Positions 410 to 27,570 of a DNA stretch of 64,000 nt are shown piece after piece. This DNA is from Vicinamibacteria bacterium (GTDB lineage: Bacteria > Acidobacteriota > Vicinamibacteria > Marinacidobacterales > Marinacidobacteraceae). The stretch's first letter is position 1; each line of letters opens with the position of its first letter. Both the position numbers and the translations under genes were made by a program. The notes below the pieces were generated by a model, which had not been told where the DNA came from, did no database searches, and was given only the letters and a program-made list of their open reading frames with translations. The DNA lies in the NCBI GenBank assembly GCA_965116805.1, contig OZ220713.1, positions 2,041,853 through 2,105,852 on the forward strand, in the 5' to 3' direction.

Positions 410-487
410 GGGGTCGTAGTTCAGTTGGTCCAGAACGCCGGCCTGTCACGCCGGAGGTCGCGGGTTCGAGTCCCGTCGGCCCCGCCA
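410..487 (+). tRNA. tRNA-Asp (anticodon GTC), CCA encoded
   Basis: Cloverleaf is readable. The 7-bp acceptor stem GGGGTCG pairs with CGGCCCC. D-arm is AGTTCAGTTGGTCCAGAAC. The anticodon stem CCGGC/GCCGG carries loop CUGUCAC with anticodon GUC. T-arm is GCGGGTTCGAGTCCCGT. Discriminator G, then CCA at 485-487. Confidence 0.9.
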
Positions 488-538
488 TCATCGCTTTTCC
501 CGCAGACGCGTTCCGGCGCCCCTTCCGTGAGGCATCTC

Positions 539-766
539 ATGAAGATCACGATTACCTACTGCGTCGTTTGAAACTACCTTCCGAACGCCTCCAGTCTGGC
601 GGCGGCAATCCGGGAGGCCCGGGGCATCGAACCCGAGCTCATCGAAGGCGGCAAGGGCATCTTCGACGTCGCGGTGGACAGCGAACTCGTCTACTCCAAG
701 TACGACACCGGCCGGTTCCCCGAGAACGACGAGATCCTCGACAAGATTCCCGTCCTCGCGAGCTGA
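539..766 (+). CDS. SelW/SelT/Rdx-family selenoprotein, 75 aa, with an in-frame TGA (569-571) read as selenocysteine in a C-x-x-U redox motif
   Basis: ATG at 539 gives MKITITYCVV-U(TGA)-NYLPNASSLAAAIREARGIEPELIEGGKGIFDVAVDSELVYSKYDTGRFPENDEILDKIPVLAS*. The N-terminal beta-strand plus CxxU, the GG motif and the 'FEV..DG.LV(Y/F)SK..TGRFP' core are the signature of Rdx/SelW proteins. The frame is continuous across the TGA to the TGA stop at 764-766. The ORF track misses it because of the internal TGA. Confidence 0.75.
586..624 (+). promoter_or_regulatory. Candidate bacterial SECIS-like stem-loop about 15 nt downstream of the Sec-UGA
   Basis: GCCTCC (587-592) can pair with GGAGGC (613-618), enclosing a roughly 20-nt GC-rich loop directly 3' of the in-frame TGA. 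Position is right for a bacterial SECIS. The structure was not computationally folded. Confidence 0.3.
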
Positions 767-808: not shown

Positions 809-3118
809 CTAGAAGTCGAAGAGACGCGTGTACTTGATGATCAGCGACCGGCCCATCACGTTCGGCACCAGAAAGCCGGTCTCGTCGTCGAAGCGGTCGA
901 GGTTGGCCGTGTTCCGCAGGTCGTTGTAGACGAGGAAGAGACCGGTGCCGCTCCGGTCGAGCATCACCAGCCGGATGTTCGAGGAGACCGAGGCGGTCTG
1001 GCTGTTGTACTGGATCAGCGCTTCCAGCCGGCGAAGCGGGGTGAACGAGTAGTTCACCCGGATCGGGATCAGGTTGGTGGTGAACTTGCCCCCGGGAAGG
1101 TCCACCACGTCGCGGTTCCAGCCGACGCTGACCTGGAAGGCGGCTCCGATGCGCCCGTTCAGGCTGGAGGTGAAGGCCCGGTAGTCGCCGTCGTAGAAGC
1201 CGCCGTTCCGGAGGTAGAAGGTCGGATACAGGCGGGCGCTGGCGTTGCCGATGTAGTTGAAGTTCACCTGGGTCCAGTGGTAGAGCCCGGGCGGGATCAC
1301 CACCCGGTGGCCGTCCACCCCCGAGTAGACGACGAAGTCGTGGAGCGGCCGGTCCCGGAACCGGTCGATGAACATCCCGAAGCGGCCCCCGCCGTTCGGC
1401 TGGAACTCGATGGGGTGCCAGTGCCCGCGGCCGGACTGGACCTCGCCGTCGAAACCGTAGTAGGCGTTCCAGGTCACGTGGGGTGAAAAACGCCGCACCC
1501 AGGACATTCCCGGGATTTGGGTCGGCTGCCAGTCCAGGTAGTAGCGCCACTGGTACTTCCGGAATCCGCGCCGCGGAACGAATCCGACCTCGGGATTGAA
1601 GTCCTCGCCCACCTGGGTGAAGCCGGCGTGCCCCTGGTGGAGCTGGTCGGCGTAGTTCAGGAAGGCCCGGCCCGCGATGGTGTCCGAGGCGTTCGCCTCC
1701 GGATCCGCACCATCCGAGGCGGTCTTGGCCAGGAAGGTGAAGAAGCGGGCGTGTTCGCCGACCTGGATCGCCGCGTCGGCGCCGAACGCCCGGTTGTAGT
1801 CGCCCTCGCCGGCCCATTCGCCGGTCGCCTGCCGGTTCACCAGGATGCCGCCGAAGTTGGACCGCCCGACCTCCCGCTGGACCCGGGCGACCGTGTAGTT
1901 GTTGGCCGCGAGGGCCAGGGCGCCCGTCTCCGCGTCGAAGGCGTCGTCGGTCTGCATGTTCATGAGACCGACGTTCGTGGAGCCCACCTTCCCGGAGAGC
2001 CGGGCGCCGCCGACGATCCCCACCGGCTGGCCGCCGTAGAGCCCGATGCGGCGGCTGAAGAAGAGGTCCACCTCCTGCGGCGCCCCGAACTGGAAGGTGG
2101 AGGCGTTTTCCAGGAAGAAGGGACGCTTCTCGGGAAAGAACAGCGGAAAGCGCGTCAGGTTGATCTGCTGGTCGTCGGCCTCGACCTGAGCGAAATCGGT
2201 ATTGGCGGTGAGATCGACCGTGAGGTTCGGCGTGACTCCCCACTTCACGTCGAGCCCGATGTCGAGGCCTTCGGTCTCGCGGTTCTCGGCGCGGACCGCC
2301 AGCGGGTTCCGGTTGGCCTCGCCGAGGGCGAACGGGGTGACCTTGAGGTCGCGCCGGGAGGGGAGGTTCAGGCCGGTGATCTTCCGCGCCAGCGAGACCC
2401 GGTAGATGTTGTAGCCGCGCGGGATCGGCGCCAGGAACGACTGTTCGTTCTTGCGGCGGATGTTCCGCATGACGTTGATGCCCCAGGTCCGGTCCCCGCC
2501 GGCCTCGTAGCGCAGCGTCCGGAGGGGAATCGCGAACTCGGTCTCCCAGCCGCGGCCGGTCCGCTGCGAGCGCACCACCCAGTCGCCGTCCCAGTTGGCG
2601 TTGAAGCCGGCGATGCCGCCGCGCTGGGAGCCGCGCTGGCCGGGGCGGGGGTTGTAGCCGCCGGTCGCGCCCTCGCCGGCGATCTGGCCGTCGTACTCGA
2701 TGCCCTCCGGGTTGGTGCCGAAGAGGAAGGCGTTCTGGCTGTCGTTGAAGGTGTCGAGGATGATCTGGACCGAGTCCGACTCGTTCAGGTCGCCGTCCCG
2801 GCGGCTTTCCGACACGAGCACCTGCTCCGGCTCGCTGTCGAAGGCGATGACCCCGACGTAGAGGGTGGTCTCCGAGAGGAGGAGGCGCACTTCGGTCCGC
2901 TCGGAGGCCGGCGCGCCGTTGTTCGGCTCCTGCTGGATGAATCCGGTGAAGGGCTCGACGCCCGACCACTGCTCGTCGGTTACCAGCCCGTCCACGACCG
3001 GGCCTTCCGCGCCTTCGCCGAGCGCCTGCACCGCGCCGTCGTTCGGGGGCACGGGGGCGGCCCCGGCGAGCGGCGCGAGCAGCAGGAGAACCGGAAGCGT
3101 GCAGGGAAACCGTCGCAT
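809..3118 (-). CDS. Secreted DUF5916/CBM9-like domain protein (769 aa, N-terminal signal peptide)
   Basis: ORF-track protein trimmed to [22 protein letters not shown].... Start ATG complement at 3116-3118, stop at 809-811. Codon usage is protein-like throughout. Family assignment is from memory of the CBM9 + DUF5916 architecture. Confidence 0.85.
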
Positions 3119-3148
3119 GGTGCGCGCGTATCCTACGCGCCCACGAGC

Positions 3149-4630
3149 ATGGCCGAAACCGCGATCCTTCCCAACTTCATCGGCGGGAGCTACCTGGCCC
3201 CGTCCGCCTCCGAAACCCTGCCGGTCTTCAACCCCGCGACGGGGGAGGTCCTGTCCCGGACTCCCCTCTCGGGCGCCGAGGATGTGGGCCGCGCGGTGGC
3301 CAGCGCGAAGGACGCGCTCCGCGACTGGCGGGAGACGCCGCCGACCGACCGGGTGCAGCCGCTCTTCCGGCTGAAGGCGCTCCTCGAGCGCGATTTCGAG
3401 GAACTCTCGCGGTGCGTGACCACCGAATGCGGGAAGACCCTCGCCGAGTCCCGCGGCGAGATGCGGCGGGCCGTCGAGAACGTGGAGGTCGCCTGCGGGA
3501 TCCCCTCCCTGATGCAGGGCCGGGTGCTCGAGGACATCGCGCGCGGGATCGACGAGCTCATGATCCGCCAGCCGGTCGGCGTGGTGGCGGTGATCGCGCC
3601 GTTCAACTTCCCGGCGATGATCCCGTTCTGGTTCCTGCCCTACGCGCTCGCCTGCGGCAACACCGTCGTCATGAAGCCGTCCGAGAAGACGCCGCTGACG
3701 ATGCAGCGGGTCGCGGCGCTGATCGACGAGGCGGGCTTCCCGCCGGGGGTGGTCCAGGTGACTCACGGCGGGCACGAGGCCGTGGAGGCGCTCCTCGACC
3801 ACCCGGACGTCGCCGCGGTCAGCTTCGTGGGTTCCTCCCCGGTGGCGCGCGTCGTCTACGCGCGGGCGGCGGGGAACGGGAAGCGGGTCCAGTGCCAGGG
3901 CGGGGCCAAGAACCCGGTGGTGGTGCTGGAGGACGCCGACGTCGAGGCCGCGGTGTCCACCGTGGCCGAGAGCGCCTTCGGGTGCGCGGGGCAGCGGTGC
4001 CTCGCGGCCTCGCTGGCGATCACCGTCGGCGATGCCCACGCGCCGTTCCGCGAGCGGGTCAGCGCGGTGGCCGCGAGCCGGGTGGTGGGTTCCGGGCTCG
4101 ACGAAGCGGTGCACATGGGCCCGGTGATCCGGGGCGAGAGCCGGGAGCGGATCGAGCGGCTGATCGGGGTGGCGGTGGAGGAGGAGAACGCCCGCGCGGT
4201 GGTGGACGGCCGCGGCGTCCGGGTCCCGGGGCACGAGGACGGGTTCTTCGTCCGCCCCACCGTGCTCGACGAGCTCCCCGCGGAGGGAGAGATCGCCCGC
4301 ACCGAGATCTTCGGGCCGGTGCTCGGCATCATCCGGGTGGACAGCGTGGAGGACGCGATCGCCTTCGTGAACAGCGGCGACTTCGGGAACATGGCCTGCG
4401 TCTTCACGAACGACGGCCGGGCCGCGCGCCGCTTCCGCCACGAGGTCCTCACCGGGAACGTGGGGATCAACGTCGGCGTGGCCGCTCCGATGGCGTTCTT
4501 CCCGTTCAGCGGCTGGCGGGGCAGCTTCTTCGGCGACCTGCACGCCCAGGGCGCCCACGCGATCGAGTTCTACACGCAGACCAAGGTCGTCGTGGAGCGC
4601 TGGCCCCGGGACGCCTCGAAGCGCTTTTGA
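3149..4630 (+). CDS. mmsA: CoA-acylating methylmalonate-semialdehyde dehydrogenase (aldehyde dehydrogenase superfamily)
   Basis: [18 protein letters not shown]...; catalytic Cys region ...[15 protein letters not shown]...; typical MmsA N-terminus. 493 aa. The long upstream extension in the track (1517..) is a GC-driven artefact. Confidence 0.9.
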
Positions 4631-6050: not shown

Positions 6051-7289
6051 ATGCGCAGCATCGCTCTCCTGGCCGTCTGGCTCCTGACCGTGGCTCCGGT
6101 CGCGGCCCAGGAGGGCCCGGCGCTGGAGCCCATCACGCTGGCCGAGGTGCTGGCGTCCGGCCGGGCCGGATCGCCGGCGATCGCGGCGGCGCGGTCCCGC
6201 GAGCGGGCGGCCGCCGCTGCCGCCGACAGGGCCGGACGCTGGACCAACCCCTCCCTCGAGTTCCAGAGCGAGAACTGGGGGGCGCCGTCACCGGGTCTCC
6301 TCCACGACACCTTCGTCACCGTCAGCCAGCGGCTCGAGCTCGGCGGCAAGCGGGGCGCGCGGCGGGGAGCGGCGTTCGCTGGCGCGGAGGCGGCCCGGGC
6401 CGATGCCTTCGCCGCGATGCGCGCGGCCGAAGGGGAACTGGCGGCCCGTTTCCTGGACGCGGTCCGGCTCCGTGATCGGGCGCGCATCCTCTCGGAACAG
6501 CGCGACGCGCTCGACGAGCTGGTCCGCGTCCTCGAACGCCGGGTGGCCGAGGGATTCGCGCCGGACGCCGATCGCGCCCGCCTCGCCGCCGAACGGGCCG
6601 GGGTCGCCATTGCGGTGACGCGGGCAGAAACCGCGGCCGCCCGGGCGTTCCTCGATCTGCAGGCGCTCGCCGCCCTGCCGGACGGGAGCACCGCGGCGGC
6701 GCTCGTCCGGCCCGGGCCCGTCCCGCTGCCGGCCGGTGACGCGAAGGCGCTCGCGGCCGGCGCCGCGTCCGCGCGGCCCGATGTCCGCTCCGCGGCCGCG
6801 CGGGTCGAGACCGCGGAACGCGCGCTCCGCCTGGAAAACTCCCTGCGGGTCCCCGACCTGACCGTGAGGACCGGCCTGAAACGTACGCTCGACACGAACA
6901 CGGGCGTGTTGGCGGTGGGGGTGGGGCTACCGGTCTTCGACCGCAATCAGGTCGCCGCGACGCTCGCCCGCGGCGAAGCCCGCGCCGCCGAGCTCGAACG
7001 GGACTTCGTGACCCGGCGCGCCGAGGCGGACGCCACCGCCGCGCTCCTGACCGCCCGGCGGCTGGCCGAGGCGGCGGCCGGAGCCGGTGACCAGCTCCTG
7101 GAGCCCGCTACCATCGGACGGACCGCCATGCGATCTGCCTTCGACCTCGGCGCGGCGGATCCCCTCCGCGTGGTGGACGCCGAGCGCGCCTTCGCCGACG
7201 CCCGCCTGCTCGAAAACGACATTCAGATCGAAGCGGTCGCCGCCGCCATCGCGGCCCGCCTGGCGCTCGGGGAGGCGCCCCTGCCGTGA
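6051..7289 (+). CDS. czcC: TolC-family outer-membrane efflux protein (CzcC-like OMF)
   Basis: Signal peptide MRSIALLAVWLLTVAPVAAQ. Long Ala/Arg/Glu-rich coiled-coil repeats typical of OMF proteins. GGAGG RBS upstream. First gene of an OMF-MFP-RND operon. Confidence 0.85.
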   Translation: MRSIALLAVWLLTVAPVAAQEGPALEPITLAEVLASGRAGSPAIAAARSRERAAAAAADRAGRWTNPSLEFQSENWGAPSPGLLHDTFVTVSQRLELGGKRGARRGAAFAGAEAARADAFAAMRAAEGELAARFLDAVRLRDRARILSEQRDALDELVRVLERRVAEGFAPDADRARLAAERAGVAIAVTRAETAAARAFLDLQALAALPDGSTAAALVRPGPVPLPAGDAKALAAGAASARPDVRSAAARVETAERALRLENSLRVPDLTVRTGLKRTLDTNTGVLAVGVGLPVFDRNQVAATLARGEARAAELERDFVTRRAEADATAALLTARRLAEAAAGAGDQLLEPATIGRTAMRSAFDLGAADPLRVVDAERAFADARLLENDIQIEAVAAAIAARLALGEAPLP

Positions 7290-8467
7290 CCCGGGTCACC
7301 CTGTTCCCGGTTCTCGTCTTCGGGCTCGCCTGCAGCGCTCCCCCCGAAGACGCCTCCGACACCGCCGCCACCGCGGATCCCGCAACCGGCATCGTCACGA
7401 TGACCGCAGCGGGACGCGAAGCCGCCGGCATCGCGACCGCTCCGGTGCGGGAGACCGTCCACACCGACGCGCTCGAAGCCCTCGGGGTGGTGAGCCTCGA
7501 CGAGCGGCGCACCGCCCGCCTGGGCGCCATCGTGGACGGCGTCGTCGCCGAGGTGCTGGTGCAGCCCGGCGACCGGGTGGAGGAAGGCGCCGTGCTGGGG
7601 CTCATCCTCAGCCACCAGATCCACGACGTCTGGGCCGAGTACTTCGCGGCGATCGCGCACCGGCAGGAGGCCGAGGCCGAGCTGGACTACGCGCGGACCG
7701 CGGAGTCCCGCGCCGAGCGGCTGTTGAACGACAAGGCGCTCGCGGAACAGGAGTTCCACCGGGTCCGCGCCGACCGGGTCGCCGCCGAGGAGGCGCTCGC
7801 GGCGGCCCGGGCGGAGGTCCGGCGGACCGAACAGGACCTCCAGCACTACGGCCTCACCCCCGGCCCGGACGCCGACCCGCGCGAGAACGAGCACGTGCCG
7901 GTCCGGGCGCCCTTCGCCGGCGCCGTCATCGAGCGGCTCGTCTCCCCCGGGGAAGCCGTCACCCTGGGCGCCCCGCTGCTGGTGGTCTCCGACCTGTCGG
8001 GCGTCTGGATCACCGCCGAGGTCCCGGAGGCCGACCTCCATCGCCTGTCGGCGCCCGAGTCCGTGGAGTTCCGGGTGACGGCCTGGCCGGACGAGGTCTT
8101 CCCCGCCACCCTCACCACCATCGGAGACGTGATCAACCCGGAGACCCGGCGGGTCACGGTCCGCGCGGAGGCGGACAACGCGGACGGGCGCCTCAAGCCC
8201 GAGATGTTCGCGACCCTCAGCGTCGCCTCCGGGGCTCCCCGCACCCTGCTGGTCGTGCCCGCGGAGGCGGTGCAGGAGCTCGCCGGCGAGCCGGTGGTCT
8301 TCGTCGAGGCCGGCCCCGGCGAGTTCCGGCGCCGCCGTGTGGTCACCGGCGCCGGCTTCGACGGCGACATCGAGATCCGCGAGGGCCTGACGGCCGGCGA
8401 ACGGGTCGCGACCGAGGGCGCCTTCCTGCTCAAGTCGGCCCTGATCGGCCTCCCCGAAGAGGAGTAA
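7286..8467 (+). CDS. czcB: Efflux RND periplasmic adaptor (membrane fusion protein, CzcB/CusB-like)
   Basis: GTG start overlaps the czcC stop (GTGA). Lipoyl/beta-barrel MFP motifs such as ...VRAPFAGAVIERLVSPGEAV... and ...PAEAVQELAGEPVVFV. Confidence 0.85.
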   Translation: MTRVTLFPVLVFGLACSAPPEDASDTAATADPATGIVTMTAAGREAAGIATAPVRETVHTDALEALGVVSLDERRTARLGAIVDGVVAEVLVQPGDRVEEGAVLGLILSHQIHDVWAEYFAAIAHRQEAEAELDYARTAESRAERLLNDKALAEQEFHRVRADRVAAEEALAAARAEVRRTEQDLQHYGLTPGPDADPRENEHVPVRAPFAGAVIERLVSPGEAVTLGAPLLVVSDLSGVWITAEVPEADLHRLSAPESVEFRVTAWPDEVFPATLTTIGDVINPETRRVTVRAEADNADGRLKPEMFATLSVASGAPRTLLVVPAEAVQELAGEPVVFVEAGPGEFRRRRVVTGAGFDGDIEIREGLTAGERVATEGAFLLKSALIGLPEEE

Positions 8468-8471
8468 CCCG

Positions 8472-11400
8472 GTGGGCCTCGTCGAACGGTTCGTCGGCGC
8501 CGCCACCGGGCGGCGCGGGCTTGTCCTGGTGTTCGTCGCCGCGCTCGCGGCGGTCGGCGTCGCGGCGCTCTGGAACCTGCCCGTCGAGGCGTTCCCCGAC
8601 CTGACGAACAACCAGGTCGTCGTCATCACCGAAGCCCCGAGCCTCGGCGCTCCCGAGGTCGAGCAGCAGGTCTCCTATCCCATCGAGACCGCCCTCATGG
8701 GGGTGCCCGACGCCGAGGAGGTCCGTTCGGTCTCCAAGTTCGGGCTCTCGCTCGTCACCGTGGTCTTCGACGACGCGGTGCCGATGTACGTCGCCCGTCA
8801 GCTCGTGACCGAGCGGCTGACCGAAGTGCGCGGCCAGATGCCCGCCGGGCTCGAACCCACGCTCGGTCCGCCCGCCACCGCGTTCGGCGAGATCTACCAG
8901 TACGTCGTGACCGGCGACGACCCGATGGCGAACAAGACGGTCCACGACTGGGAGGTGCGGACCCGGCTGCGCTCGGTGCCGGGGGTGAGCGAGGTGAACT
9001 CCTGGGGCGGCCTCACCCAGCAGTTCGAGGTGGTCGTCCGGCCGGAGGCGCTCGAGGAGTTCGACCTCACCCTCCGCGACGTCTTCCACGCCATCGGCGA
9101 CAGCAACCGGGCGTTCAGCGGGGGGTTCATCGAGGCCCGCGACGAGCGCTACACCGTGCGCGGGATCGGGCTCCTCACCGGTGTCGAAGACCTCGAGCGG
9201 GTGGTGGTGCGCGCCGACGACGGCGTCCCGGTGCTCCTCGCCGATATCGCCGAGGTCGGGCTGGGGGCGATGCAGCGGAGCGGCGCCGTCACCGCGGGCG
9301 GCGAGGGCGAGGTCACGAGCGGCATGGTGGTCATGCTGAAGGGCGAGAACGCGCTCGAGGTCTCCGACCTGGTCAAGGAGCGGATGTCCGAGATCCTGCC
9401 CGGTTTGCCGCAGGGCATGGACATCGAGCCCTTCTACGACCAGAGCGAGGTCATCGACCGCACCTCGGCGACCGTGCGGCGGAACCTCATCGAGGGCTGC
9501 CTGCTGGTCATCCTGGTCCTCTTCATCTTCCTGCGCGACGTCCGGGCGGCGCTCATCGTCGCCGCAGTCATTCCGCTCTCGATGCTCGTGGGCTTCACCG
9601 GCATGCGCGCCTTCGGCATCTCGGCCAACCTGATGTCGCTCGGCGCCATCGACTTCGGGCTCATCGTGGACGGTGCGGTGGTCATGATGGAGAGCTTCGT
9701 CCGGCGGCGGGCGGCCTCCGGGGAAGGCGGCGGGCGCGTCGCACAGATCCGCGGCGCGGCGATGGAGGTGGCGCGGCCGGTGCTCTTCGGCGTGCTCATC
9801 ATCATCGCCGTCTATCTGCCGATCCTCACCCTCGAAGGCCTCGAGGGGAAGATGTTCCGGCCGATGGCGATCACGGTCTGCTCGGCGCTCTTCGGATCGC
9901 TCCTCCTCTCGCTCACCGGCGTCCCGGTGGTCTCGTCCTTCCTGCTGAAGTTCGGCGGGGTCCACCGGGAGGCGCGCTGGTTCGAGCGGCTCCGCGAGCG
10001 GTACCTCCGGGTGCTCCGGGTCGCCATGACGCGGAAGGCCGCAACGGTCGGCATCGCGACGGTCATCATCCTGACCGCCATCGGCTCCGTTCCCTTTCTG
10101 GGCACCGAGTTCATGCCGCGCCTCGACGAGGGCTCGATCCTGATCGAGACCCGGAAGCTGCCGTCGGTGTCGCTCGAGGAGTCGGTCGAGATCTCGACCC
10201 GGGTGGAGCGGAAGCTGCTCGCCGAGTTCGACGAGATCTCGGACATCGTCACCAAGATGGGCCGGCCGGATCTCGCCACCGAGGCGATGGGCATCTACCA
10301 GGGCGACGTGTACGTGCTGCTCCATCCCGAGGACGACTGGGAGAGCGGGCGATCCAAGGAGGAGTTGATCGACGCGCTCGCGGCTTCGCTGGCGGAGATC
10401 CCCGGGCTGTCGGTGAACTTCACCCAGCCGATGGCCATGCGGCTCGACGAGGTCGTCTCCGGAATCAAGGCGGACGTGGCAGTGAAGGTCTTCGGGCCCG
10501 ATGCAGCGGTCCTCGAACGCCTGGGAGCGGAAGTTCTGCGCGTCATCGAGGGGGTGCCGGGCGCTGCCGACGCTCAGCTCGAGGTGCTCTCCGGAGCCGC
10601 GCAACTCGAAGTCCGTCTCGACCGGGAGGCCCTCGCCCGCTACGGGCTCCACGTGGGGGACGTCCAGGAGTTCGTCGAGACCGCGGTCGCCGGCAGCACG
10701 GTCACCCAGCTCATCGACGGCGCCCGAAGGTTTCCGGTGGTGGTGCGTTTCCCGCCCGAACGGCGTGCCGACGCCGCGGCGCTGGCGTCGGTGCCCCTCA
10801 CGGCTCCCGGGGGCGAGCACATCCCGCTGGGCCGGATCGCGGAGATCGCCGCCGCGCCCACCCCGGAGGCGATCAACCACGAGAACGGGGAGCGCCGGCT
10901 GGTGGTCCAGACGAACGTCCGGGGCCGGGACGTGGGCAGCTTCGTCGCCGAGGCGGAGGACCGGATCGCGGAGCGGGTGACGCTGCCCTCCGGCTACTAC
11001 CTGACCTGGGGCGGCCAGTTCGAGAACCAGCAGCGCGCCATGTCCCGGCTGACGCTGGTGGTCCCGCTCTCCATCGCCATCATCTTCGGCCTGCTCTACG
11101 TCACCTTCCGGCGGGTGCGCTGGGCGCTCCTGATCCTCCTGAACGTGCCGTTCGCCGCGGTGGGCGGGATCGCCGCGCTCTGGATCCGTGGCCTGACGCT
11201 CAACCTGTCAGCCTCGGTGGGCCTGATCGCGCTCTTCGGGATCGCGACGCTGAACGGCATCGTCATGCTCGCCGCGATCCGGGCGCTCCGCGAGGACGAG
11301 GGGCTCGGCCTCCGCGAGGCGATCGTGACCGGAGCCGGCTCGCGGCTGAAGCCCGTGCTGATGACCGCCACCGTGGCCTCCATCGGGTTCCTGCCGATGG

Positions 11401-11549
11401 CGCTCTCGCAGGGGGCCGGCGCCGAGGTGCAGCGGCCGCTCGCCACCGTCGTGATCGGGGGCATCGTGACCTCCACGCTGCTGACCCTCGTGGTGCTCCC
11501 GACGCTCTACGAGCGGATGGAGGCGTGGGTGGCGGCGCGGGCCGGGTAG
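8472..11549 (+). CDS. czcA: Heavy-metal efflux RND transporter, CusA/CzcA family (1025 aa)
   Basis: MGLVERFVGAA...; LSLVTVVFDDAVPMYVARQLVTERL and GEIYQY HME-RND signatures; 12-TM RND topology. GTG start 5 bp after the czcB stop. Confidence 0.9.
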   Translation: MGLVERFVGAATGRRGLVLVFVAALAAVGVAALWNLPVEAFPDLTNNQVVVITEAPSLGAPEVEQQVSYPIETALMGVPDAEEVRSVSKFGLSLVTVVFDDAVPMYVARQLVTERLTEVRGQMPAGLEPTLGPPATAFGEIYQYVVTGDDPMANKTVHDWEVRTRLRSVPGVSEVNSWGGLTQQFEVVVRPEALEEFDLTLRDVFHAIGDSNRAFSGGFIEARDERYTVRGIGLLTGVEDLERVVVRADDGVPVLLADIAEVGLGAMQRSGAVTAGGEGEVTSGMVVMLKGENALEVSDLVKERMSEILPGLPQGMDIEPFYDQSEVIDRTSATVRRNLIEGCLLVILVLFIFLRDVRAALIVAAVIPLSMLVGFTGMRAFGISANLMSLGAIDFGLIVDGAVVMMESFVRRRAASGEGGGRVAQIRGAAMEVARPVLFGVLIIIAVYLPILTLEGLEGKMFRPMAITVCSALFGSLLLSLTGVPVVSSFLLKFGGVHREARWFERLRERYLRVLRVAMTRKAATVGIATVIILTAIGSVPFLGTEFMPRLDEGSILIETRKLPSVSLEESVEISTRVERKLLAEFDEISDIVTKMGRPDLATEAMGIYQGDVYVLLHPEDDWESGRSKEELIDALAASLAEIPGLSVNFTQPMAMRLDEVVSGIKADVAVKVFGPDAAVLERLGAEVLRVIEGVPGAADAQLEVLSGAAQLEVRLDREALARYGLHVGDVQEFVETAVAGSTVTQLIDGARRFPVVVRFPPERRADAAALASVPLTAPGGEHIPLGRIAEIAAAPTPEAINHENGERRLVVQTNVRGRDVGSFVAEAEDRIAERVTLPSGYYLTWGGQFENQQRAMSRLTLVVPLSIAIIFGLLYVTFRRVRWALLILLNVPFAAVGGIAALWIRGLTLNLSASVGLIALFGIATLNGIVMLAAIRALREDEGLGLREAIVTGAGSRLKPVLMTATVASIGFLPMALSQGAGAEVQRPLATVVIGGIVTSTLLTLVVLPTLYERMEAWVAARAG

Positions 11550-16148: not shown

Positions 16149-16931
16149 ATGAGACTCGTGACTCTTCGTCGAGCGGCGCTTGGCGCCGTGCTGGCGCTCA
16201 TGGCGGTCGTGGTGACGCTCGCCGTGATCCGGCGGTCGGCCACTCCGCCAGCGCCCACGACTTCGGCAGACGAGGCGCTTGCCCTGGAGTCACCGTCCTA
16301 CGGCACGCGTGAACCAGCGGTGGACGCTGCCGAGCCGGAAACCGAGGTCCCCGATGAAGTCCTGGCCGTTCAAACGCCACCGGACAGCAGTCCGGCGGGA
16401 CTCCTGGTGGCAGCCGCCGGGGCGGGCGACGCCGCGCGCGTTCGGGAACTCCTCGCTGCCGGAGTGCCGCCGGATTCCGAGAGTCAGGGAACGTTCGCCA
16501 TTCACCGCGCCGCGGTCGCTGGTTCGGTCGCGGTACTCCAGGTTCTCGTGGAGGCCGGAGCGCACCTCGAAGCGCTCAACCAGTACGGGCAGACGGCCCT
16601 GACCCAGGCTGCGTTCTACGGCAATGCGGAAGCGGTGGTGTTCCTGCTGAGCGCGGGCGCCGACCCGAACGCCCACGCCGAACCGAACCATCAGACACCC
16701 CTGAGGGCGATCCTGAGCGGCTGGACAATGACTCTCTCGAGTCGCTCGCGGCTCCCGCCGAAGGACGAGGAACGCTTCGCGGCGGCCTGGGCGCTCATTC
16801 AGGCGGGGGCCGATCCACACTTCGGTCCCGGAGACCATCCACCGCCAGTGGTGATGGCGGAAGCCCTCGGCGGCGAAGTCGGGCGGCTCTTCGCCCAGGA
16901 TCCGACCGATCCCGGGCAGCGCCCGCGCTGA
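16149..16931 (+). CDS. Ankyrin-repeat protein with N-terminal signal/TM anchor
   Basis: MRLVTLRRAALGAVLALMAVVVTLAV...; repeated ANK units (..TPLHRAA..G....VLVEAGA..). The ATG sits immediately after the last array copy (...gctccggtcgataacATG). Confidence 0.8.
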   Translation: MRLVTLRRAALGAVLALMAVVVTLAVIRRSATPPAPTTSADEALALESPSYGTREPAVDAAEPETEVPDEVLAVQTPPDSSPAGLLVAAAGAGDAARVRELLAAGVPPDSESQGTFAIHRAAVAGSVAVLQVLVEAGAHLEALNQYGQTALTQAAFYGNAEAVVFLLSAGADPNAHAEPNHQTPLRAILSGWTMTLSSRSRLPPKDEERFAAAWALIQAGADPHFGPGDHPPPVVMAEALGGEVGRLFAQDPTDPGQRPR

Positions 16932-17800: not shown

Positions 17801-18619
17801 TCACGTCCCCCCACGCGAAGCCCAGGGCTCCGGCGCCCACAGTCTCCAGCGAGTGATGAGCCGGGGGCACTCCAGCGCCGCATCCAGCTGTGTATTCCCA
17901 GCGGTGAGGCGCTGGCGGCAGGATTCCAACAGTTCCGGGCCTGACGGATCGCGTTCGGCGAGAAAGCCCAGCCGCTTGAAGACCGCACCGTTGCCGAGCC
18001 GGACGGCGTAGCGGATCAGGAGGTCGTCGTCGCGGCGGTCCGACTTGAGGTAGACCGACAGACAGTCGGCCACGTGCTGGATTCCGCCTCCGAGTTCCGG
18101 ATCGGCGAGCATGTCCAGGATGGTCCGGTGCATGTCCGCCACCGCGACCCGGGTTCTGCCACGCCAGACGCTGGCGGTCCCGAAGATCTTTCCCGGGCGG
18201 ACGTGGGTGACGCTGAACTCGGCGCCGTGGCAACGCCGGCTCTTCTGCCGCACGGTCTGCGCCGTCATGACCACGATGTCACGGAAGATCTGTTCGGTCA
18301 GATCCCAGTGCTCGGCGGCCGTGCGGCCACCGATGTAGGCCGGATCAAAGAGCGGCGGCACCAGGATCCACGGATCGTCCAGCACACGGATGCTGCCGAG
18401 CGTGGTGAGTGAGGCAGGGAGGTAGACGCCGCGGGCTGCGCGCCGCAGCCATGCCTGTTTCACCCAGCGCGAGAGCAACTTCGCAGCCTCGGCGCGCGAC
18501 ACCTCGAGGGCGTTCACGACATCCTCTATCCGCACGACGTCCCCGGCTTCGTTGAGGACGGCGCTGAGGCGACGGCGCGATTCCGGAACGACGGGATCCG
18601 ATGTGGTGGTGGTTCTCAT
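17801..18619 (-). CDS. AbiEi-like (COG5340) antitoxin/transcriptional-regulator domain protein
   Basis: N-terminal wHTH ...DVVRIEDVVNALEVSRAEAAKLLSRWVKQAWLRRAARGVYLP.. followed by AbiEi_4-like ...FDPAYIGGRTAAEHWDLTEQIF....VTHVRPGKIFG.... No cognate AbiEii nucleotidyltransferase downstream. Confidence 0.6.
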   Translation of the reverse strand: MRTTTTSDPVVPESRRRLSAVLNEAGDVVRIEDVVNALEVSRAEAAKLLSRWVKQAWLRRAARGVYLPASLTTLGSIRVLDDPWILVPPLFDPAYIGGRTAAEHWDLTEQIFRDIVVMTAQTVRQKSRRCHGAEFSVTHVRPGKIFGTASVWRGRTRVAVADMHRTILDMLADPELGGGIQHVADCLSVYLKSDRRDDDLLIRYAVRLGNGAVFKRLGFLAERDPSGPELLESCRQRLTAGNTQLDAALECPRLITRWRLWAPEPWASRGGT

Positions 18620-19172
18620 GGTCGGCGAATCACGGAGGCTACGTCCTGGCGTGGCGGTGGCGTCTGCGTCTACTCGTGACTTCAGTTGTCCGGAACTACA
18701 TTACATTGTCATTTGATCGCACTAGTCGGGAAATTCAGACATCTCCATATATCCCAAGTCAATCCTGTCCAACTCGACACACCGTTGATCTCTCCCGCAA
18801 TCCGACCGGTCACCGCGACCCGGTCATTCCCGGATCAAACGCAAAACCTGTGGTTGGTCAGCGGTTTGTGGGGTTGTGTGCTCTCTCTAATATCGCTTTC
18901 CAGTCAAATAGATAAACCACGTTTTAACAATGACTTAGCGTGCTTTGTGCTCCAGGCGAGCGTTTCCGGTCAAGTAAACGCGGGTCGTCGGCTCGGAGTT
19001 CGGACGGGAGCAGCCGGCACCCGGCGGCCGCACCGCCGCCGGATCTGGAGCGCGAGCTCGCTCAGGCCGAGACTCAGTGCGATTCGGACTGATTCACTTC
19101 AGGACTGGAGGGCGGCAAGAGTCGCCACCAGGACGAATCCGGCAGGAACCCCCTGAAACAATACGCCGCCGC

Positions 19173-21992
19173 ATGCGCCTCTCCTGGAACGAGATCCGCG
19201 CCCGCGCCGGGTCCTTCGCCCGCAAGTGGGCGGACGCCGGATACGAGAAAGGCGAGACCCAGAGCTTCTACAACGACTTCTTCCGCATCTTCGGGGTGCG
19301 CCGGGAGTCGGTGGCCCGCTACGAGGAGCGGGTGGAGAAGCTCGACGACACCAGCGGGTTCATCGACCTCTTCTGGCCGGGAGTCCTGATCGTCGAACAG
19401 AAGAGCGCCGGGCGCAACCTGTCCGCTGCATACGAGCAGGCGGGAGGCTACTTCGACGCGCTGACGGAGACCGAGCGGCCTCGCTACATCCTGGTCAGCG
19501 ACTTCCAGCACTTCGAACTCCACGACCTGCTCCAGCGGGACGAGGTGTCCTTCCGGCTCGACCAGTTGCCGGAACACGTCGAGAAGTTCGGCTTCATCCT
19601 GGGTGTCGCCAGCCGCACCTTCCGGGACCAGGACCCGGCGAACATCGAGGCCGCCGAACTGGTCGGGAAGCTCCACGATTCGCTCCGGGACGCCGGCTAT
19701 CCGGCCCACGACCTCGAACGCTTCCTCGTCCGGATCGTCTTCTGCCTGTTCGCCGACGACACCGGAGTCTTCGAGCCCCGGGACATCCTGCTCGACTTCC
19801 TGGAGACGCGGACCCGCGAGGACGGTACGGACCTCGGACCACTGCTCGCCCAACTCTTCCAGGTGCTGGACACCCCCGAAGACCAGCGAATCGCAACTCT
19901 GGACGAGGATCTGGCCCGCTTTCCGTACATCGACGGCGAACTCTTCGCCGCCACCATCCGGATTCCAGCGTTCACCGCGGAGATGCGGGAGCACCTGCTG
20001 ACCGCCTGCCGGTTCAACTGGTCAACGATCTCCCCGGCGATCTTCGGGTCGCTTTTCCAGTCGGTGATGGACCCGGTGGAGCGTCGGGCGCAGGGGGCGC
20101 ACTACACCACCGAGCAGAACATCCTCAAGGTCATCGAGCCGCTCTTCCTCGACGATCTGTGGGAGGAGTTCACCCGGATCAGAGCCCTCCGCCGCGATCG
20201 GCTTCGGCGGCTGCGCGAGTTCCAGGAGAAGCTCGGCAGGCTCACTTTCTTCGATCCGGCGTGCGGCTGCGGCAACTTCCTGGTGATCGCGTATCGCGAG
20301 CTTCGGCGGCTGGAAGTCGAAGTACTCCGCGAGCTCCTGGGGAGGGAGGAACAGCAGGTCCTCCAGTTTGACGTGAGTTCGCTCTCCCGGCTCGACGTAG
20401 ACCAGTTCTACGGGATCGAGATCGGGGAGTTCCCGGCCCGGATCGCCGAGGTGGCTCTCTGGATGATGGACCACCTGATGAACAACGAGCTCAGCCTTGA
20501 GTTCGGTCAGTCCTACGCCCGCATCCCCCTGAAGCGCTCGCCGCACATCCACTGCGGGGATGCGCTGGAGATGGACTGGGAGGATCTGCTGCCGGCGAAG
20601 GAGTGTTCGTTCGTCTTCGGGAATCCCCCGTTCGGAGGCGCCAAGTTCCAGTCACCGGCGCAGCGGGCGCAGGTCCGGCGGATCGCCGCGCTCGGGGGCT
20701 CCGGCGGCACACTCGACTACGTGACCGCGTGGTTCATCACAGCGGGTGGATATATCCAGAAGAGCGGCCCGCCGGGCGAGCGGGCAAGGATCGGCTTCGT
20801 GGCGACGAACTCGATCACCCAGGGGGAGCAGGTGGCGCAGCTCTGGCCGATCCTGTTCGGCCGGTGCGGGCTTGAGATTGCCTTTGCCCACCGGACGTTC
20901 GCGTGGGGTTCGGACGCGCGGGGCATGGCGCATGTACACGTCGTCATCGTCGGGTTTGACGACCGGGCGGGGATTCCGGCGACGCGGCGGCTGTTTTCGT
21001 ACGACGACGTGAAGGGGAATCCGCATGAGAGTGGCCACGCGGTCTTGTCACCGTATCTGTTCGATGGCGGGGGACTGGCCGATCCGCATCTCGTGGTGCG
21101 GGAGGAGAGCCGGCCGATCAACGGGATGTCACAGTTGGTGACGGGCACCCAGCCGCTGGAAGACGGTCATCTCACTTTCTCGACCGAAGAGAGAGCGGTC
21201 TTTCTGTCTCGAGAGCCGGCCGCCGCGTCAATTCTCCGTCCGTTCCCGGGAGCACGTGAGTTCATTCGGCGTCAGACTCGGTGGATCCTTCACACCGGCA
21301 ACCTTGAGCCACAGGAACTCCGTGCTTTACCGCTCGTGCGCGAGCGACTGAGATTGGTGCGCGAGTTCCGCTCGAAGAGCAAGCGCACTACGACGCGGAA
21401 ACTGGCGGACTACCCGAGCATGTACGGTGTCACCGTGGTTCCGAACTCACCGTTCCTCGTGGTGCCTCAGGTGAGTTCAGAGCGGCGCGAATACGTGCCA
21501 ATCGGTTGGTTGGAACCTCCGACAATCCCGAGCGAAAAGCTGCGACTCCTTCTCGATGCGTCTCTTGCCGACTTCGCTCTCCTGACATCAGCAATGCATA
21601 TGGCATGGATGCGCGCGGTCACGGGCCGATTGGAGAGCCGTTACATGTATTCTGTGGGAGTGGTCTACAACACCTTCCCGCTACCTCCGAAGGACGCGGA
21701 TCTGGGTCCCCTCGACCCGCTCGCCCAAGCTGTCCTCGATGCCCGCGCCGCTCATCCCAACGCCACTCTCGCGGATCTCTACGACCCGGACCTCATGCCG
21801 GTGGACCTCCGCCGTGCCCACGAGGCACTCGACCGCGCCGTGGACCGTCTCTACCGGCCCCGCAAGTTTGCCTCCGAGCGGGAACGCGTCGAGCACCTCT
21901 TCACGCTCTACGAGCGGATGCGCACGCCGCTGGCCGCCACCACCACGAAGAAGCGCAAACGCCGTCGGACTAGCCGCCTATCCGCCATTTGA
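19173..21992 (+). CDS. MmeI-family type IIL (IIG) restriction-modification enzyme: single-chain endonuclease + N6-adenine methyltransferase + TRD (939 aa)
   Basis: MRLSWNEIRARAG... aligns by eye along its length with MmeI as I remember it (not database-checked). PD-ExK nuclease IDLFWPGVLIVEQKS; MTase motif I FFDPACGCGNFLVIAYRELRRLEVEVLRELL; motif IV FVFGNPPFGG; downstream ...ATNSITQGEQVAQLWP... and ...SERREYVPIGW.... The first Met of the track ORF (19077) is rejected in favour of Met33 (19173). Confidence 0.85.
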   Translation: MRLSWNEIRARAGSFARKWADAGYEKGETQSFYNDFFRIFGVRRESVARYEERVEKLDDTSGFIDLFWPGVLIVEQKSAGRNLSAAYEQAGGYFDALTETERPRYILVSDFQHFELHDLLQRDEVSFRLDQLPEHVEKFGFILGVASRTFRDQDPANIEAAELVGKLHDSLRDAGYPAHDLERFLVRIVFCLFADDTGVFEPRDILLDFLETRTREDGTDLGPLLAQLFQVLDTPEDQRIATLDEDLARFPYIDGELFAATIRIPAFTAEMREHLLTACRFNWSTISPAIFGSLFQSVMDPVERRAQGAHYTTEQNILKVIEPLFLDDLWEEFTRIRALRRDRLRRLREFQEKLGRLTFFDPACGCGNFLVIAYRELRRLEVEVLRELLGREEQQVLQFDVSSLSRLDVDQFYGIEIGEFPARIAEVALWMMDHLMNNELSLEFGQSYARIPLKRSPHIHCGDALEMDWEDLLPAKECSFVFGNPPFGGAKFQSPAQRAQVRRIAALGGSGGTLDYVTAWFITAGGYIQKSGPPGERARIGFVATNSITQGEQVAQLWPILFGRCGLEIAFAHRTFAWGSDARGMAHVHVVIVGFDDRAGIPATRRLFSYDDVKGNPHESGHAVLSPYLFDGGGLADPHLVVREESRPINGMSQLVTGTQPLEDGHLTFSTEERAVFLSREPAAASILRPFPGAREFIRRQTRWILHTGNLEPQELRALPLVRERLRLVREFRSKSKRTTTRKLADYPSMYGVTVVPNSPFLVVPQVSSERREYVPIGWLEPPTIPSEKLRLLLDASLADFALLTSAMHMAWMRAVTGRLESRYMYSVGVVYNTFPLPPKDADLGPLDPLAQAVLDARAAHPNATLADLYDPDLMPVDLRRAHEALDRAVDRLYRPRKFASERERVEHLFTLYERMRTPLAATTTKKRKRRRTSRLSAI

Positions 21993-22170
21993 GAACCTAG
22001 GTGGGTCGCAGCGGGCTCGCCCACCCGGACTTCCGTGTGGGTTGTCTCTGAGTGAAGGAGCGGCCGGCCTGTCTGGGGCTAAGGTTTTCCGGGACGAGCC
22101 CACAAGCCGGCATACTCAACGCCCCGGCGACACCTTGTGAATACGCCAGGAATGAGCGGGGAGACCTAGC

Positions 22171-23262
22171 GTGACGGACATCATTGAGCCGGCACAGAGT
22201 GAACTGATGGTGTACCGCCCCCTCTCGCAAATGGTGCAGCTGTTCGTGCTGCCAGAGATTGATAGACGCGTCGATTCCGGCGCGATCCCAGAAGTCGATC
22301 TGCCGCTGCAGCTGCTTCAGTTCAGGGTCGTCGAGCCCGGACCCAGGCATACCGTTGAACTCAATGACGAGGTTCAGCTCACGTTTCGTGTCAAGGCGAA
22401 GAAGGCCGTCAAAGCCGGGGAGCCCGTCCACCTCGACGAGATTGACGCTGCCTCCACCGTGCTACTGCCGCCCATCGTGGATGGGACGCCTAGGTCGTTC
22501 TTTCTCCTCCTATCGGCGTTCCTAAACCTGCAGACGGCGTTTGACTTTACCCAGGGCGGACCTGGTCCCATCGGACCACCAATGCTGTTTCCGGCTGCCC
22601 AGTTGGTCCAGATGCAGCGATTTCTTGAGACGGTACAGCCAGTGGAGAAGTTCAGGGAGTTGGCACGGCTCAACTGGCCACCGGCACCGGGGTACTTCCC
22701 TAGTGTCATCGCGCATGCGCATGAGAATCCCGACGATCTGAAGAGGCCGCAGTTCGCGGCCAAGGTTGCAGATACGTACGATGCGGACTTCTGGCAGCAA
22801 CAGCTGGATCTCTGGGGGCAGACCAAACTCTTTCCAGGCCGGTCGCAGTACATCCGTAAAGCCGTCGACGAGTATTGCGAAGACGACTGGATAAGCTCCA
22901 TTTGCGTCATCGTCCCTCAGTTTGAGGGCATCATCTCGGACTACCTACGGACTGTCGGTGAGGAGCCGAAATCCAGGTTCAAAGAAATGGTGTCTCAGCT
23001 CCGGACGCTTGTGTTTTCGCGGAAAGTATTGCTATTCCCGTCGCCTGTCCTTGAGTTGATTCTCGGATTCCTCGAAACGGGAACATTCTGGCAGAACGCG
23101 GATAGCATCGACGATCCGAAACAACAGATCAACCGGCATGGAATTGTCCACGGAGTATTCACCGGTTTTGAGACAAGGGACGTAGCTCTAAAGTACCTGG
23201 TACTCGTCGATGCGCTCGCGCTGCTGATTTTGCACGACAGGATTGTGACCGGCACTCTCTAG
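22171..23262 (+). CDS. Hypothetical protein (363 aa), low-GC, no recognisable family. C-terminal R-x4-H (RHGIVH) could be a HEPN-like motif.
   Basis: GTG start with RBS. Clean 1.09 kb ORF in a roughly 52% GC segment. Convergent with the 4-TM gene. Confidence 0.7.
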   Translation: MTDIIEPAQSELMVYRPLSQMVQLFVLPEIDRRVDSGAIPEVDLPLQLLQFRVVEPGPRHTVELNDEVQLTFRVKAKKAVKAGEPVHLDEIDAASTVLLPPIVDGTPRSFFLLLSAFLNLQTAFDFTQGGPGPIGPPMLFPAAQLVQMQRFLETVQPVEKFRELARLNWPPAPGYFPSVIAHAHENPDDLKRPQFAAKVADTYDADFWQQQLDLWGQTKLFPGRSQYIRKAVDEYCEDDWISSICVIVPQFEGIISDYLRTVGEEPKSRFKEMVSQLRTLVFSRKVLLFPSPVLELILGFLETGTFWQNADSIDDPKQQINRHGIVHGVFTGFETRDVALKYLVLVDALALLILHDRIVTGTL

Positions 23263-23327
23263 CCGCATGGCTCCAGAGACCGAAGTCGGTCGCAGTCCGC
23301 CATGTGCAAGAGCGTTGGTGCACGTCG

Positions 23328-24194
23328 TCAGTCGCGATCTTCCGTCCTCGATAGCGTGTCATTCCAAACGCGCTGCAACGGTTCCTCGTAATAGCGCTTA
23401 AGGCTGTCCGGGATAAGTGGTCCTTCCTTACGTGCCCACTGATAGCCTGAGACGGCAAGAATCACGTCAAGATTGGACACACTGCCGACTCGATCCAGGA
23501 GCTCTGTGAGCCTCTTCATTGATTCCTCCGCCGCCACGCTCAACCGATGGTACTTCGTCCCTAGATTCACAGCGTCCAGAAGGACAAGTAGAGAAATGGC
23601 CAAGCCATAACTGCGCCGGAGGATTCCTGAGGCACCCATAGTTGCTCGCTCGTCCTGTACTTCCAGTCCCCCTAGCGTTATAGCTGAGACGGAAACCACT
23701 AGCGCGGCCCCCGTCACGATGAAGACAATCAGCGATGCCTTCTTGGCTAGCTGCTCGGTCCACCAGGCGGACTCGCGTTCCATTCTGATGAGCAGAGAAT
23801 GTGAGGGCTCGCCCGACGCTTCATAGTAATCGTCGTAGCTCACAGAGGGACCTTGTCTCGGCAACCTGTTGACATACTTCAACTTCACTCTGGCCAACTT
23901 CGCCGCGTCAATCTTGTACCCGATGCCACGGCTTAGTTCGATAGCCCGAATGGTCCATTCCGCGTCTTCCCGATAGTTTTCTGACCTCCAAACACAGATC
24001 CGCCCGGAGATCGCAAACACGACCGCACCCAGCGGTCCGACCCACCCTTGCCATCCAATCGACCATGCGATCGGAACGGCCACAATAGCCAGATAGCCAA
24101 GACTGACGCCGAAACCCCACAACAGCTTTGCCCGAGAGGACACCCAGGTCCGGAGGTGGTGAAGTTGCTTCAAATCTGGCTCACCAATGCTCAT
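23328..24194 (-). CDS. Four-TM membrane protein (288 aa), candidate membrane-disrupting effector (SLATT/4TM-like)
   Basis: TM pairs LLWGFGVSLGYLAIVAVPIAW / WVGPLGAVVFAISGRICVW and ASLIVFIVTGAALVVSVSAITLGG / LAISLLVLLDAVNLG separated by soluble segments. Low GC. Downstream of the nucleotidyltransferase on the same strand. Confidence 0.7.
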   Translation of the reverse strand: MSIGEPDLKQLHHLRTWVSSRAKLLWGFGVSLGYLAIVAVPIAWSIGWQGWVGPLGAVVFAISGRICVWRSENYREDAEWTIRAIELSRGIGYKIDAAKLARVKLKYVNRLPRQGPSVSYDDYYEASGEPSHSLLIRMERESAWWTEQLAKKASLIVFIVTGAALVVSVSAITLGGLEVQDERATMGASGILRRSYGLAISLLVLLDAVNLGTKYHRLSVAAEESMKRLTELLDRVGSVSNLDVILAVSGYQWARKEGPLIPDSLKRYYEEPLQRVWNDTLSRTEDRD

Positions 24195-24423
24195 GTCAGT
24201 CTAAGTTCGAGGTGTAAAGAAAGGCTGTCGCGCAAATCGTGTCCACTTCAAGCGAGCATGCTCAGAGACCCGGCAATCCTACGACCCGCTATGTTCTCAG
24301 GAACTCCTCGATACGCAAGCGATGCTGGAGAGCAACGGGCCCACGATGCTTCTAGACGGCGTGGTTGCCGACCTCCAGCCGTTGCCCACAGGCTGCTCCA
24401 CTCGCCAGTCACGACACAGCAAT

Positions 24424-24453
24424 CGCGAGGAGTACCCGCGCGAGGAGTACCCG
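24424..24453. repeat. Perfect tandem duplication of a 15-bp unit CGCGAGGAGTACCCG x2 in the spacer between the nucleotidyltransferase and 4-TM genes
   Basis: ...aatCGCGAGGAGTACCCGCGCGAGGAGTACCCGgtgatg... read directly. Confidence 0.9.
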
Positions 24454-24495
24454 GTGATGACTAAATGGTCCGAGAGCCCTCGCCGCCCACCGCGC

Positions 24496-25368: not shown

Positions 25369-25533
25369 TACATTCTCCCGTGAAGTTCAACGGTCTCGCG
25401 ACGCAAGGCCGGGCCGCAGCTAGTGTTCCCCTTCAGGCCTCGCATCCAAGAGTCGACCTCCAGGGAAGAACGCCTAAGTACGCCCTTTCGCCGTTCGAGG
25501 GCGTCGTAAGGGCTCTGCATCAAGTCGCAATCG

Positions 25534-25562
25534 GAGCGATAGCGGATTTCGCTATCGCTCCG
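25534..25562 (-). terminator. Perfect 12-bp stem hairpin (GGAGCGATAGCG-GATTT-CGCTATCGCTCC) 45 bp downstream of groEL; probable operon terminator (no U-tract)
   Basis: Inverted repeat read directly. It sits between the groEL 3' end and the nucleotidyltransferase start. Confidence 0.4.
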
Positions 25563-25606
25563 CGCCAAAACGAATGATCTGAGGCGTAGCCGGTGGTTAC
25601 CTTGGA

Positions 25607-27268
<1,662 letters not shown>

Positions 27269-27282
27269 TCAGTGGGGGCCGT

Positions 27283-27570
27283 CTACTCGACGATGCCCAG
27301 AATCTCGTCCTCGCGGACGATGATGAAGTCCTCGCCGTCGAGCTTGACCTCGGATCCGGAGTACTTTCCGATCAGCACGGTCTGCCCGGGCTTGACCTCG
27401 GGAGCCTGACGGCCGCCGTCCTTCAGGACCTTGCCGGCGCCCACCTCGACCACTTCGGCGGTCATCGGTTTTTCCTTCGCGGTATCGGGAACGATGATGG
27501 AGCCGATCTTCTCCTCGGCCGCCTCGAGCCGGCGAAGCAGAACGTTCTCCCTCAGAGGCTTGAACTTCAT
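27283..27570 (-). CDS. groS: Co-chaperonin GroES (95 aa)
   Basis: MKFKPLRENVLLRRLEAAEEKIGSIIVPDTAKEKPMTAEVVEVGAGKVLKDG...; 35 bp upstream of groEL. The track ORF is trimmed to this Met. Confidence 0.95.
   Translation of the reverse strand: MKFKPLRENVLLRRLEAAEEKIGSIIVPDTAKEKPMTAEVVEVGAGKVLKDGGRQAPEVKPGQTVLIGKYSGSEVKLDGEDFIIVREDEILGIVE

Follow-up and report, generated by a model that had tools for sequence, protein, structure and literature searches.

The question raised by this locus is whether a TGA triplet met ten codons into a small reading frame ends translation there or is read through as selenocysteine (Sec). In the window, by which we mean the whole 64-kb stretch of DNA that was analysed, the frame runs on the forward strand from an ATG at 539–541 through nine more sense codons to a TGA at 569–571, and on through 64 sense codons to a TGA stop at 764–766. 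Translated through codon 11, the coding sequence at 539–766 (+) yields a 75-residue SelW-like product, MKITITYCVV-U-NYLPNASSLAAAIREARGIEPELIEGGKGIFDVAVDSELVYSKYDTGRFPENDEILDKIPVLAS. The codons TGC-GTC-GTT-TGA (560–571, +) would here specify Cys8-Val-Val-Sec11, a CxxU redox motif, with the in-frame UGA at 569–571 (+) as the proposed Sec codon, a proposal made from sequence, translation and conservation. A Shine-Dalgarno-like GTGAGG, picked out by eye, is found at 527–532 (+), 6 nt 5′ of the ATG; GCGAGG, GCGGAG or the like occupies this position in relatives. The first-pass annotation had placed a SelW/Rdx gene with an in-frame TGA here, and its coordinates and sequence, as well as the C-x-x-U motif at residue 11 (found as C8-V-V-U11), stood up to scrutiny. 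It had also held that stop-to-stop ORF finding cannot see the gene, and the ORF finder indeed lists only a 30-residue frame at 674–766. Two details needed amendment: the 65 codons that it counted past the TGA are 64 sense codons, or 65 with the stop, and within the Rdx core, which is present, the stretch that it gave as FEV.VDG reads FDV.VDS.LVYSKYDTGRFP.

Family membership was assessed with profile searches. Scored with Cys in place of the TGA, the product matched Pfam Rdx (PF10262) at 60.3 bits (E = 2.2e-16; cutoff 22.6) over residues 2–70 and profile positions 1–72 of 74, and it also passed NCBIfam TIGR02174 ‘CXXU_selWTH’ (50.7 bits against a cutoff of 34.2); both results bear out the Rdx/SelW assignment first made by eye. 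The top-scoring NCBIfam model was NF041051 ‘SelTWH_Campy’, whose 78.9 bits fall below the 88-bit equivalog cutoff and so place the protein outside that Campylobacterota subfamily. Removal of the first 11 residues lowered the Pfam score to 38.1 bits, meaning that the N-terminal part is worth 22 bits and that the ten codons 5′ of the TGA carry real homology. Among proteins of solved structure, the best sequence match was human MIEN1/C17orf37 (2LJK; E = 4e-9, residues 2–70), with Agrobacterium Atu0228 (2FA8) also among the best, and the CxxC of both aligns with C8..U11; similarity extends to the Rdx proteins 3DEX and 2OKA. The Rdx family is a thioredoxin-fold family, and similarity in sequence to these solved members implies such a fold for the window protein.

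We next asked how widely the TGA is kept. A scan of 185,579 species, one genome each, used the pattern MKI[TSK]I[TK]YC for the first eight residues and was neutral between TGA and TGC at codon 11. It returned 212 relatives, the best 80 of which were retained and come from about ten phyla. Nineteen of these best 80 are Acidobacteriota, Vicinamibacteria or ‘Ca. Marinacidobacterium’ metagenome-assembled genomes (MAGs) at 73–97% protein identity, while the other phyla represented are Planctomycetota, Myxococcota, Desulfobacterota, Verrucomicrobiota, Gammaproteobacteria, Nitrospirota, Chloroflexota, Zixibacteria and Spirochaetota. Together with the window and four loci fetched earlier, the best 80 of the 212 gave a set of 85 sequences spanning 51–97% protein identity. 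All 85 have TGA at codon 11 and none has TGC there; codon 8 is always TGC or TGT. Within the 19 acidobacterial genomes, the TGA is retained down to 73% protein identity with 0 replacements by TGC. Among the acidobacterial copies (n = 20), variable sites at the first, second and third codon positions number 1/2/5 in codons 1–10 and 15/7/34 in codons 12–71; this mainly third-position variation on both sides of the TGA indicates that the first ten codons are translated.

Cysteine at the same position is found farther afield. HMMER, run exhaustively over 1.84 billion cluster representatives, recovered 630 family members, and among the best 148 short ones, which we classified, 59 read CxxW, 45 begin after the motif and 34 carry CxxC, with the second Cys of the CxxC aligned to codon 11. 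Such an exchange of Sec and Cys at one position is what typically marks a family of selenoproteins. The first-pass annotation had suggested looking for Cys homologs, and they do exist: CxxC occurs in these more distant members (34/148 representatives) and in none of the 85 closer sequences.

The first-pass annotation had further pointed to a stem-loop 3′ of the TGA at the distance expected of a bacterial SECIS. Folding gave a conserved and covarying core at 586–604 (+), CGCC-U-CCA[GUC]UGG-C-GGCG, identified as SECIS-type from the minimum free energy fold, pair conservation and covariation. From base to tip it has four lower-stem pairs, the mismatch U590/C600, three upper-stem pairs and a GUC loop (G594-U595-C596, 594–596) whose first base is 22 nt past the UGA. 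Zhang and Gladyshev reportedly described, in 2005, a bSECIS consensus with a G(U) in the apical loop at about 16–37 nt from the UGA; the layout of the 586–604 hairpin agrees with this. Folding 566–640 as a single sequence recovered the hairpin with z = −0.6 against shuffles, no extra stability, which is uninformative in DNA of 69% GC. RNAalifold on an 82-sequence alignment did not recover it and returned a different 3-bp consensus without covariation; the hairpin was therefore named by hand and tested by pair counts against slid and shuffled controls.

The pair counts used 82 distinct sequences aligned without gaps. In them, 93.7% of paired cells were complementary, compared with 24–56% when the 3′ partners were slid by 1–3 columns, although part of this conservation is due to the protein because the hairpin lies inside conserved coding sequence. 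Most of its pairs are invariant and hence uninformative, and the covariation comes from two of them: 27 double-sided changes fall at pairs 21–39 (GC 37, CG 18, AU 3) and 24–36 (CG 72, UA 4, AU 1, GC 1), giving a covariation score reached by 0/500 shuffles. Codon choice adds to this picture. Ser19 is AGU in 72/72 sequences with Ser, the remainder having GGU Gly with the GU retained, although 2.7% of the genome’s Ser codons are AGT; Leu20 is CUG or UUG only, though CTC accounts for 55% of Leu codons; and Ala21 is GCG in 74/83. The first loop base, G, is invariant and the second, U, nearly so. Such rare or fixed synonymous codons point to a constraint at the RNA level beyond that of the protein.

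When a covariance model was trained on 65 loci from outside the Acidobacteriota and run unfiltered on both strands of the 64 kb, 569–610 (+), the UGA-plus-hairpin recoding segment, was its sole significant match at 59.3 bits (E about 1.6e-16; next best 9.3 bits), a score that includes coding conservation and so measures specificity, not structure alone. Rfam SECIS models gave no hit at the gathering threshold in the window or at E ≤ 10 in 380–860, a result that says little about function.

Taken together, a model for the locus emerges. The gene very probably encodes a thioredoxin-fold oxidoreductase in which Sec is inserted at residue 11 by the SelB- and SECIS-dependent route, forming a Cys8/Sec11 selenenylsulfide centre. 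During translation, the UGA at 569–571 would not be decoded as a stop; the mRNA hairpin at 586–604, which starts 15 nt downstream of it and has a GU in its apical loop and an unpaired U three base pairs lower, would act as a bacterial SECIS, bringing SelB-GTP-Sec-tRNASec to the ribosome for Sec to be inserted. The mature protein may then alternate between selenolate/thiol and selenenylsulfide states as a small thiol-dependent oxidoreductase. That the inserted residue is Sec, that SelB binds the hairpin and that the protein has a redox role we infer from established knowledge of the SelW-like family and of how bacteria decode Sec.

The Sec machinery itself was sought in the window and in all fetched loci. 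In the 64-kb window, ARAGORN and Rfam found no tRNA-Sec, Pfam found no SelA, SelB or SelD domain among the 40 predicted proteins, and tblastn with E. coli SelA, SelB and SelD found no match; nor is there a sel gene in the about 5 kb that follow the window’s right end on a near-identical contig. ARAGORN likewise detected no tRNA-Sec in any fetched locus, and across all fetched loci tblastn with the three E. coli queries matched solely selB in the locus of a Nitrospirota MAG (L068). There, about 1.1 kb separates a SelB gene at 15–1895 (−; 626 aa) from the SelW-like gene at 3001–3219 (+), which it lies upstream of and diverges from, with a 324-aa ORF between the two; this is the sole case of linkage to the Sec machinery among 84 loci. 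A protein-database search with the L068 SelB gave matches of which those listed were all from Nitrospirota, with no acidobacterial SelB among them. No other in-frame TGA with coding-like flanks turned up in the window, in a scan that also missed the 539–766 gene: its upstream window enters non-coding DNA, so it is insensitive to N-terminal Sec codons. Acidobacteria are known to include selenoprotein users (PMC1794560), and SelA and SelB are reported from most bins of sponge symbionts, Acidobacteria bin61 of 67.7% GC among them (PMC5649159, Table S4), a bin that could not be linked to the window’s lineage. That the organism decodes Sec appears well supported, if indirectly, by the gene and its conservation. 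By the same token, the SelW-like gene predicts selenium use and a selABCD pathway in an uncultured marine or sponge-associated acidobacterium, a pathway whose presence the first-pass annotation had likewise held to be implied.

The rival that survives best accepts the SelB/SECIS route and alters its cargo: Cys could be inserted through a tRNA-Sec-like tRNA-Cys, or delivery could be altered in some other way. The window itself is silent on which aminoacyl-tRNA is used. Precedents exist in the selC* tRNA-Sec-like tRNA-Cys species, possible opal suppressors in some bacteria, and in the allo-tRNAs of Acidobacteria (PMC5389517); selC*, however, was reported from anaerobic Firmicutes, Thermodesulfobacteria, Nitrospirae and Proteobacteria, not from Acidobacteria (PMC5389517). 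A TGC codon would moreover achieve the same end without any machinery, yet 0/85 sequences have one, which argues that Sec itself has been selected for. We consider Cys delivery very unlikely.

A less likely reading still, and one that we hold to be highly improbable, is that translation does end at the TGA and that the genuine gene begins downstream, encoding a protein of 30–46 aa. Existing annotation would seem to favour it. Besides the 30-aa frame at 674–766 of the ORF finder and the 45 short entries among the best 148 of the 630 representatives, a word-based protein search returned three close database entries, two of which are truncated: an NCBI call of 46 aa from a relative (P0002, named ‘Rdx family protein [Acidobacteriota bacterium]’) and an ENA/Logan call of 44 aa, both beginning past the TGA. 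The third, a JGI call of 76 aa (P0001), has W at position 11, where the underlying codon is TGA. The DNA beneath all three entries nevertheless has the arrangement of the window, tRNA-Asp followed by an in-frame ATG...TGC-GTC-GTT-TGA-AAC-TAC, and every truncated call examined has the ATG...TGC-GTC-GTT-TGA in frame upstream. The first codon of P0002 is, in the DNA, ATC. In the window, the first canonical in-frame start past the TGA is the GTG at 674, which would leave 30 of about 74 domain residues, and a short product of this kind would be without strand 1 and the family-defining CxxU/CxxC centre. Ten codons 5′ of a true stop would, in addition, hardly contribute 22 Pfam bits or vary mainly at third positions among the acidobacterial copies. 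The first-pass annotation had named homologs that are normally shorter, or that start after the TGA, as an observation that would count against it; the short entries are instead gene-calling artefacts with the same ATG...TGC-GTC-GTT-TGA upstream.

An altered genetic code, with UGA read as Trp or Gly as the JGI CVVW call implies, is in our estimation extremely unlikely. The W at position 11 of P0001 stands over a TGA, and CxxW is read in 59/148 representatives (best 148 of 630). Against this, TGA is the commonest stop in the window, ending 13/26 confident genes as well as the 539–766 gene itself, which points to local recoding and not to a changed code. The same TGA is present in about ten phyla with the standard code, and genuine homologs carry Cys, not Trp. 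A genome GC of 69% is also unlike the known UGA-Trp lineages. Faulty gene calling is the simplest account of the CxxW entries, a reading checked at the DNA level for P0001 alone. WxxW was read in two of the 148 family representatives (best 148 of 630; entries P0001, P0004–P0153). A pseudogene or sequencing error, in which the TGC of a Cys gene became TGA through a single base change, has a practically negligible chance of being the explanation, given that the TGA recurs in 85/85 independent assemblies at 51–97% protein identity, that other stops or frameshifts are absent and that the downstream hairpin is conserved.

Sec insertion at codon 11, the reading preferred here, has a direct consequence for annotation: the locus should be entered as a 75-aa selenoprotein with a transl_except at codon 11, not as a 30–46 aa fragment and not as a CxxW protein. 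The relatives’ records suggest that gene calling errs systematically on selenoproteins in protein sets derived from metagenomes. Of the representatives classified from the clustered protein library (best 148 of 630), 104/148 are affected, 45 being cut short and 59 showing Trp where Sec belongs, so that profiles and statistics derived from databases of this sort give a false picture of the family’s active site.

The neighbourhood of the gene is itself conserved. A tRNA-Asp(GTC) gene at 410–487 (+), called by ARAGORN and Rfam, ends 51 nt before the ATG at 539, and the succession of tRNA-Asp and SelW-like gene is kept in 19/19 acidobacterial loci. The conserved gene order runs DUF507, tRNA-Asp, SelW-like gene, DUF5916, aldehyde dehydrogenase and VTT-domain protein, and over its first 6 kb the window is 94–95% identical in DNA to Acidobacteria/Acidobacteriota MAG contigs (L009, L005). 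Relatives that carry the same SelW-like gene are also represented by OY821641.1, OZ252286.1, OZ244986.1 and ENA ERZ26167126 contig_9. No promoter-like site was found between tRNA-Asp and the ATG, on which ground the two genes may share a transcript; a promoter and terminator scan of 250–900 found nothing by its criteria. We also considered the proposal that, in this Vicinamibacteria-type lineage, the selenoprotein mRNA is the tail of the tRNA-Asp transcript or, alternatively, that the UGA is served by a non-canonical tRNA (e.g. a Cys-charged tRNA-Sec-like species), and we regard it as speculative and improbable. Were the transcript shared, expression of the selenoprotein would be coupled to the transcription and processing of the tRNA.

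Several further features surround the pair. An extended −10-like box, CTGCTAGAAT, sits at 380–389, about 21 nt upstream of tRNA-Asp, and follows the pattern TGCTA(G/A)(A/G/T)AT; the acidobacterial relatives whose contigs reach that far (L001–L018) show the variants CTGCTAATAT, CTGCTAGGAT, CTGCTAGTAT and CTGCTACTAT, and the tRNA-Asp gene is identical in all of them. On the other side, 8 nt past the stop codon, a terminator-like hairpin, CCGGCCG-AGAA-CGGCCGG followed by TTT, occupies 774–794, between the SelW-like gene and the convergent DUF5916 gene that ends at 809; having 3 T only, it failed the scan.

Elsewhere, the window is of about 70% GC, save for a stretch at about 18000–26000 where GC is 57–64%. 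This stretch contains an MmeI-family type II restriction-modification enzyme (19173–21992) and ORFs without a Pfam match, and was probably acquired as an island by horizontal transfer; at 16–18 kb, where an ankyrin-repeat ORF lies at 16548–16931, GC is slightly low at 67.7%. In one relative (L001), an MmeI-family gene lies within about 10 kb of the SelW-like gene. Two window genes belong to families that can handle sulfur or selenium, a two-domain rhodanese (41773–42597, −) and a class-V aminotransferase of the cysteine desulfurase / selenocysteine lyase superfamily (57403–58602, +), with no link to the selenoprotein gene. The window also carries a three-gene RND efflux operon (6051–11549, +) for an outer-membrane factor, an HlyD-type adaptor and an AcrB-type pump, GroES and GroEL (25607–27570, −), and two prolyl-oligopeptidase genes (28880–31057 and 51092–52984). 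The exact 165-aa product of an ORF at 58667–59164 is encoded on six assembled contigs (including L088–L090; ENA samples ERZ24894577 and ERZ25072195 are among the sources), one of them longer than 1 Mb, which means that near-identical genomes are publicly available.

How does the locus compare with known systems? Mammalian SelW and MIEN1 share with the window protein the Rdx domain and the same CxxU/CxxC position; MIEN1 differs in having Cys, not Sec. Eukaryotic SelW relies on a 3′-UTR SECIS together with SBP2 and eEFSec, whereas the signal in the window is a hairpin within the ORF, of the bacterial SelB type. NF041051 ‘SelTWH_Campy’ describes proteins of the same architecture as the window protein. 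For the hairpin itself, the comparison made is with the E. coli fdhF SECIS, the reference element for bacterial Sec insertion, which we folded alongside it: both lie just 3′ of the UGA, and in both an upper stem of 3 bp carries a loop with a GU, an unpaired U standing three pairs further down on the 5′ side. The fdhF loop is GGUC, of 4 nt, and starts 18 nt after the UGA, compared with the 3-nt GUC and 22 nt in the window. U590 of the window hairpin faces a C in a 1×1 internal loop, whereas the fdhF U is a bulge; at the position of U590, homologs of the window gene carry A, U or G.

The gene is an ordinary bacterial SelW-like selenoprotein gene that annotation had missed, and its kind is already known. 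Bacterial SelW-like selenoproteins feature in surveys of prokaryotic selenoproteomes (PMC1088965, PMC1794560, PMC2398784), and SelW-like CxxU proteins of bacteria have been described since 2004–2008, so there is nothing new in this respect; the TIGR02174 model kept by NCBI even takes its name from the CxxU motif. In the Global Ocean Sampling data, SelW-like proteins were the most abundant selenoprotein family, with 427 Sec against 56 Cys forms, and they were enriched in marine samples (PMC2398784); Sec-using organisms have few Cys homologs of them (PMC1794560). Our finding leaves the knowledge of selenoproteins unchanged, and its value lies in the corrected annotation and in a reminder about database entries. 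The window copy, which comes from an uncultured marine or sponge-associated lineage of Acidobacteriota (Vicinamibacteria), resembles the bacterial family in its length of about 75 aa, in a CxxU that follows the first strand, in a UGA succeeded by a hairpin inside the coding sequence, in the excess of Sec over Cys forms and in the family’s prevalence in marine bacteria. It differs from that family in nothing of substance; it is a copy that adjoins tRNA-Asp and is mis-annotated in public records.
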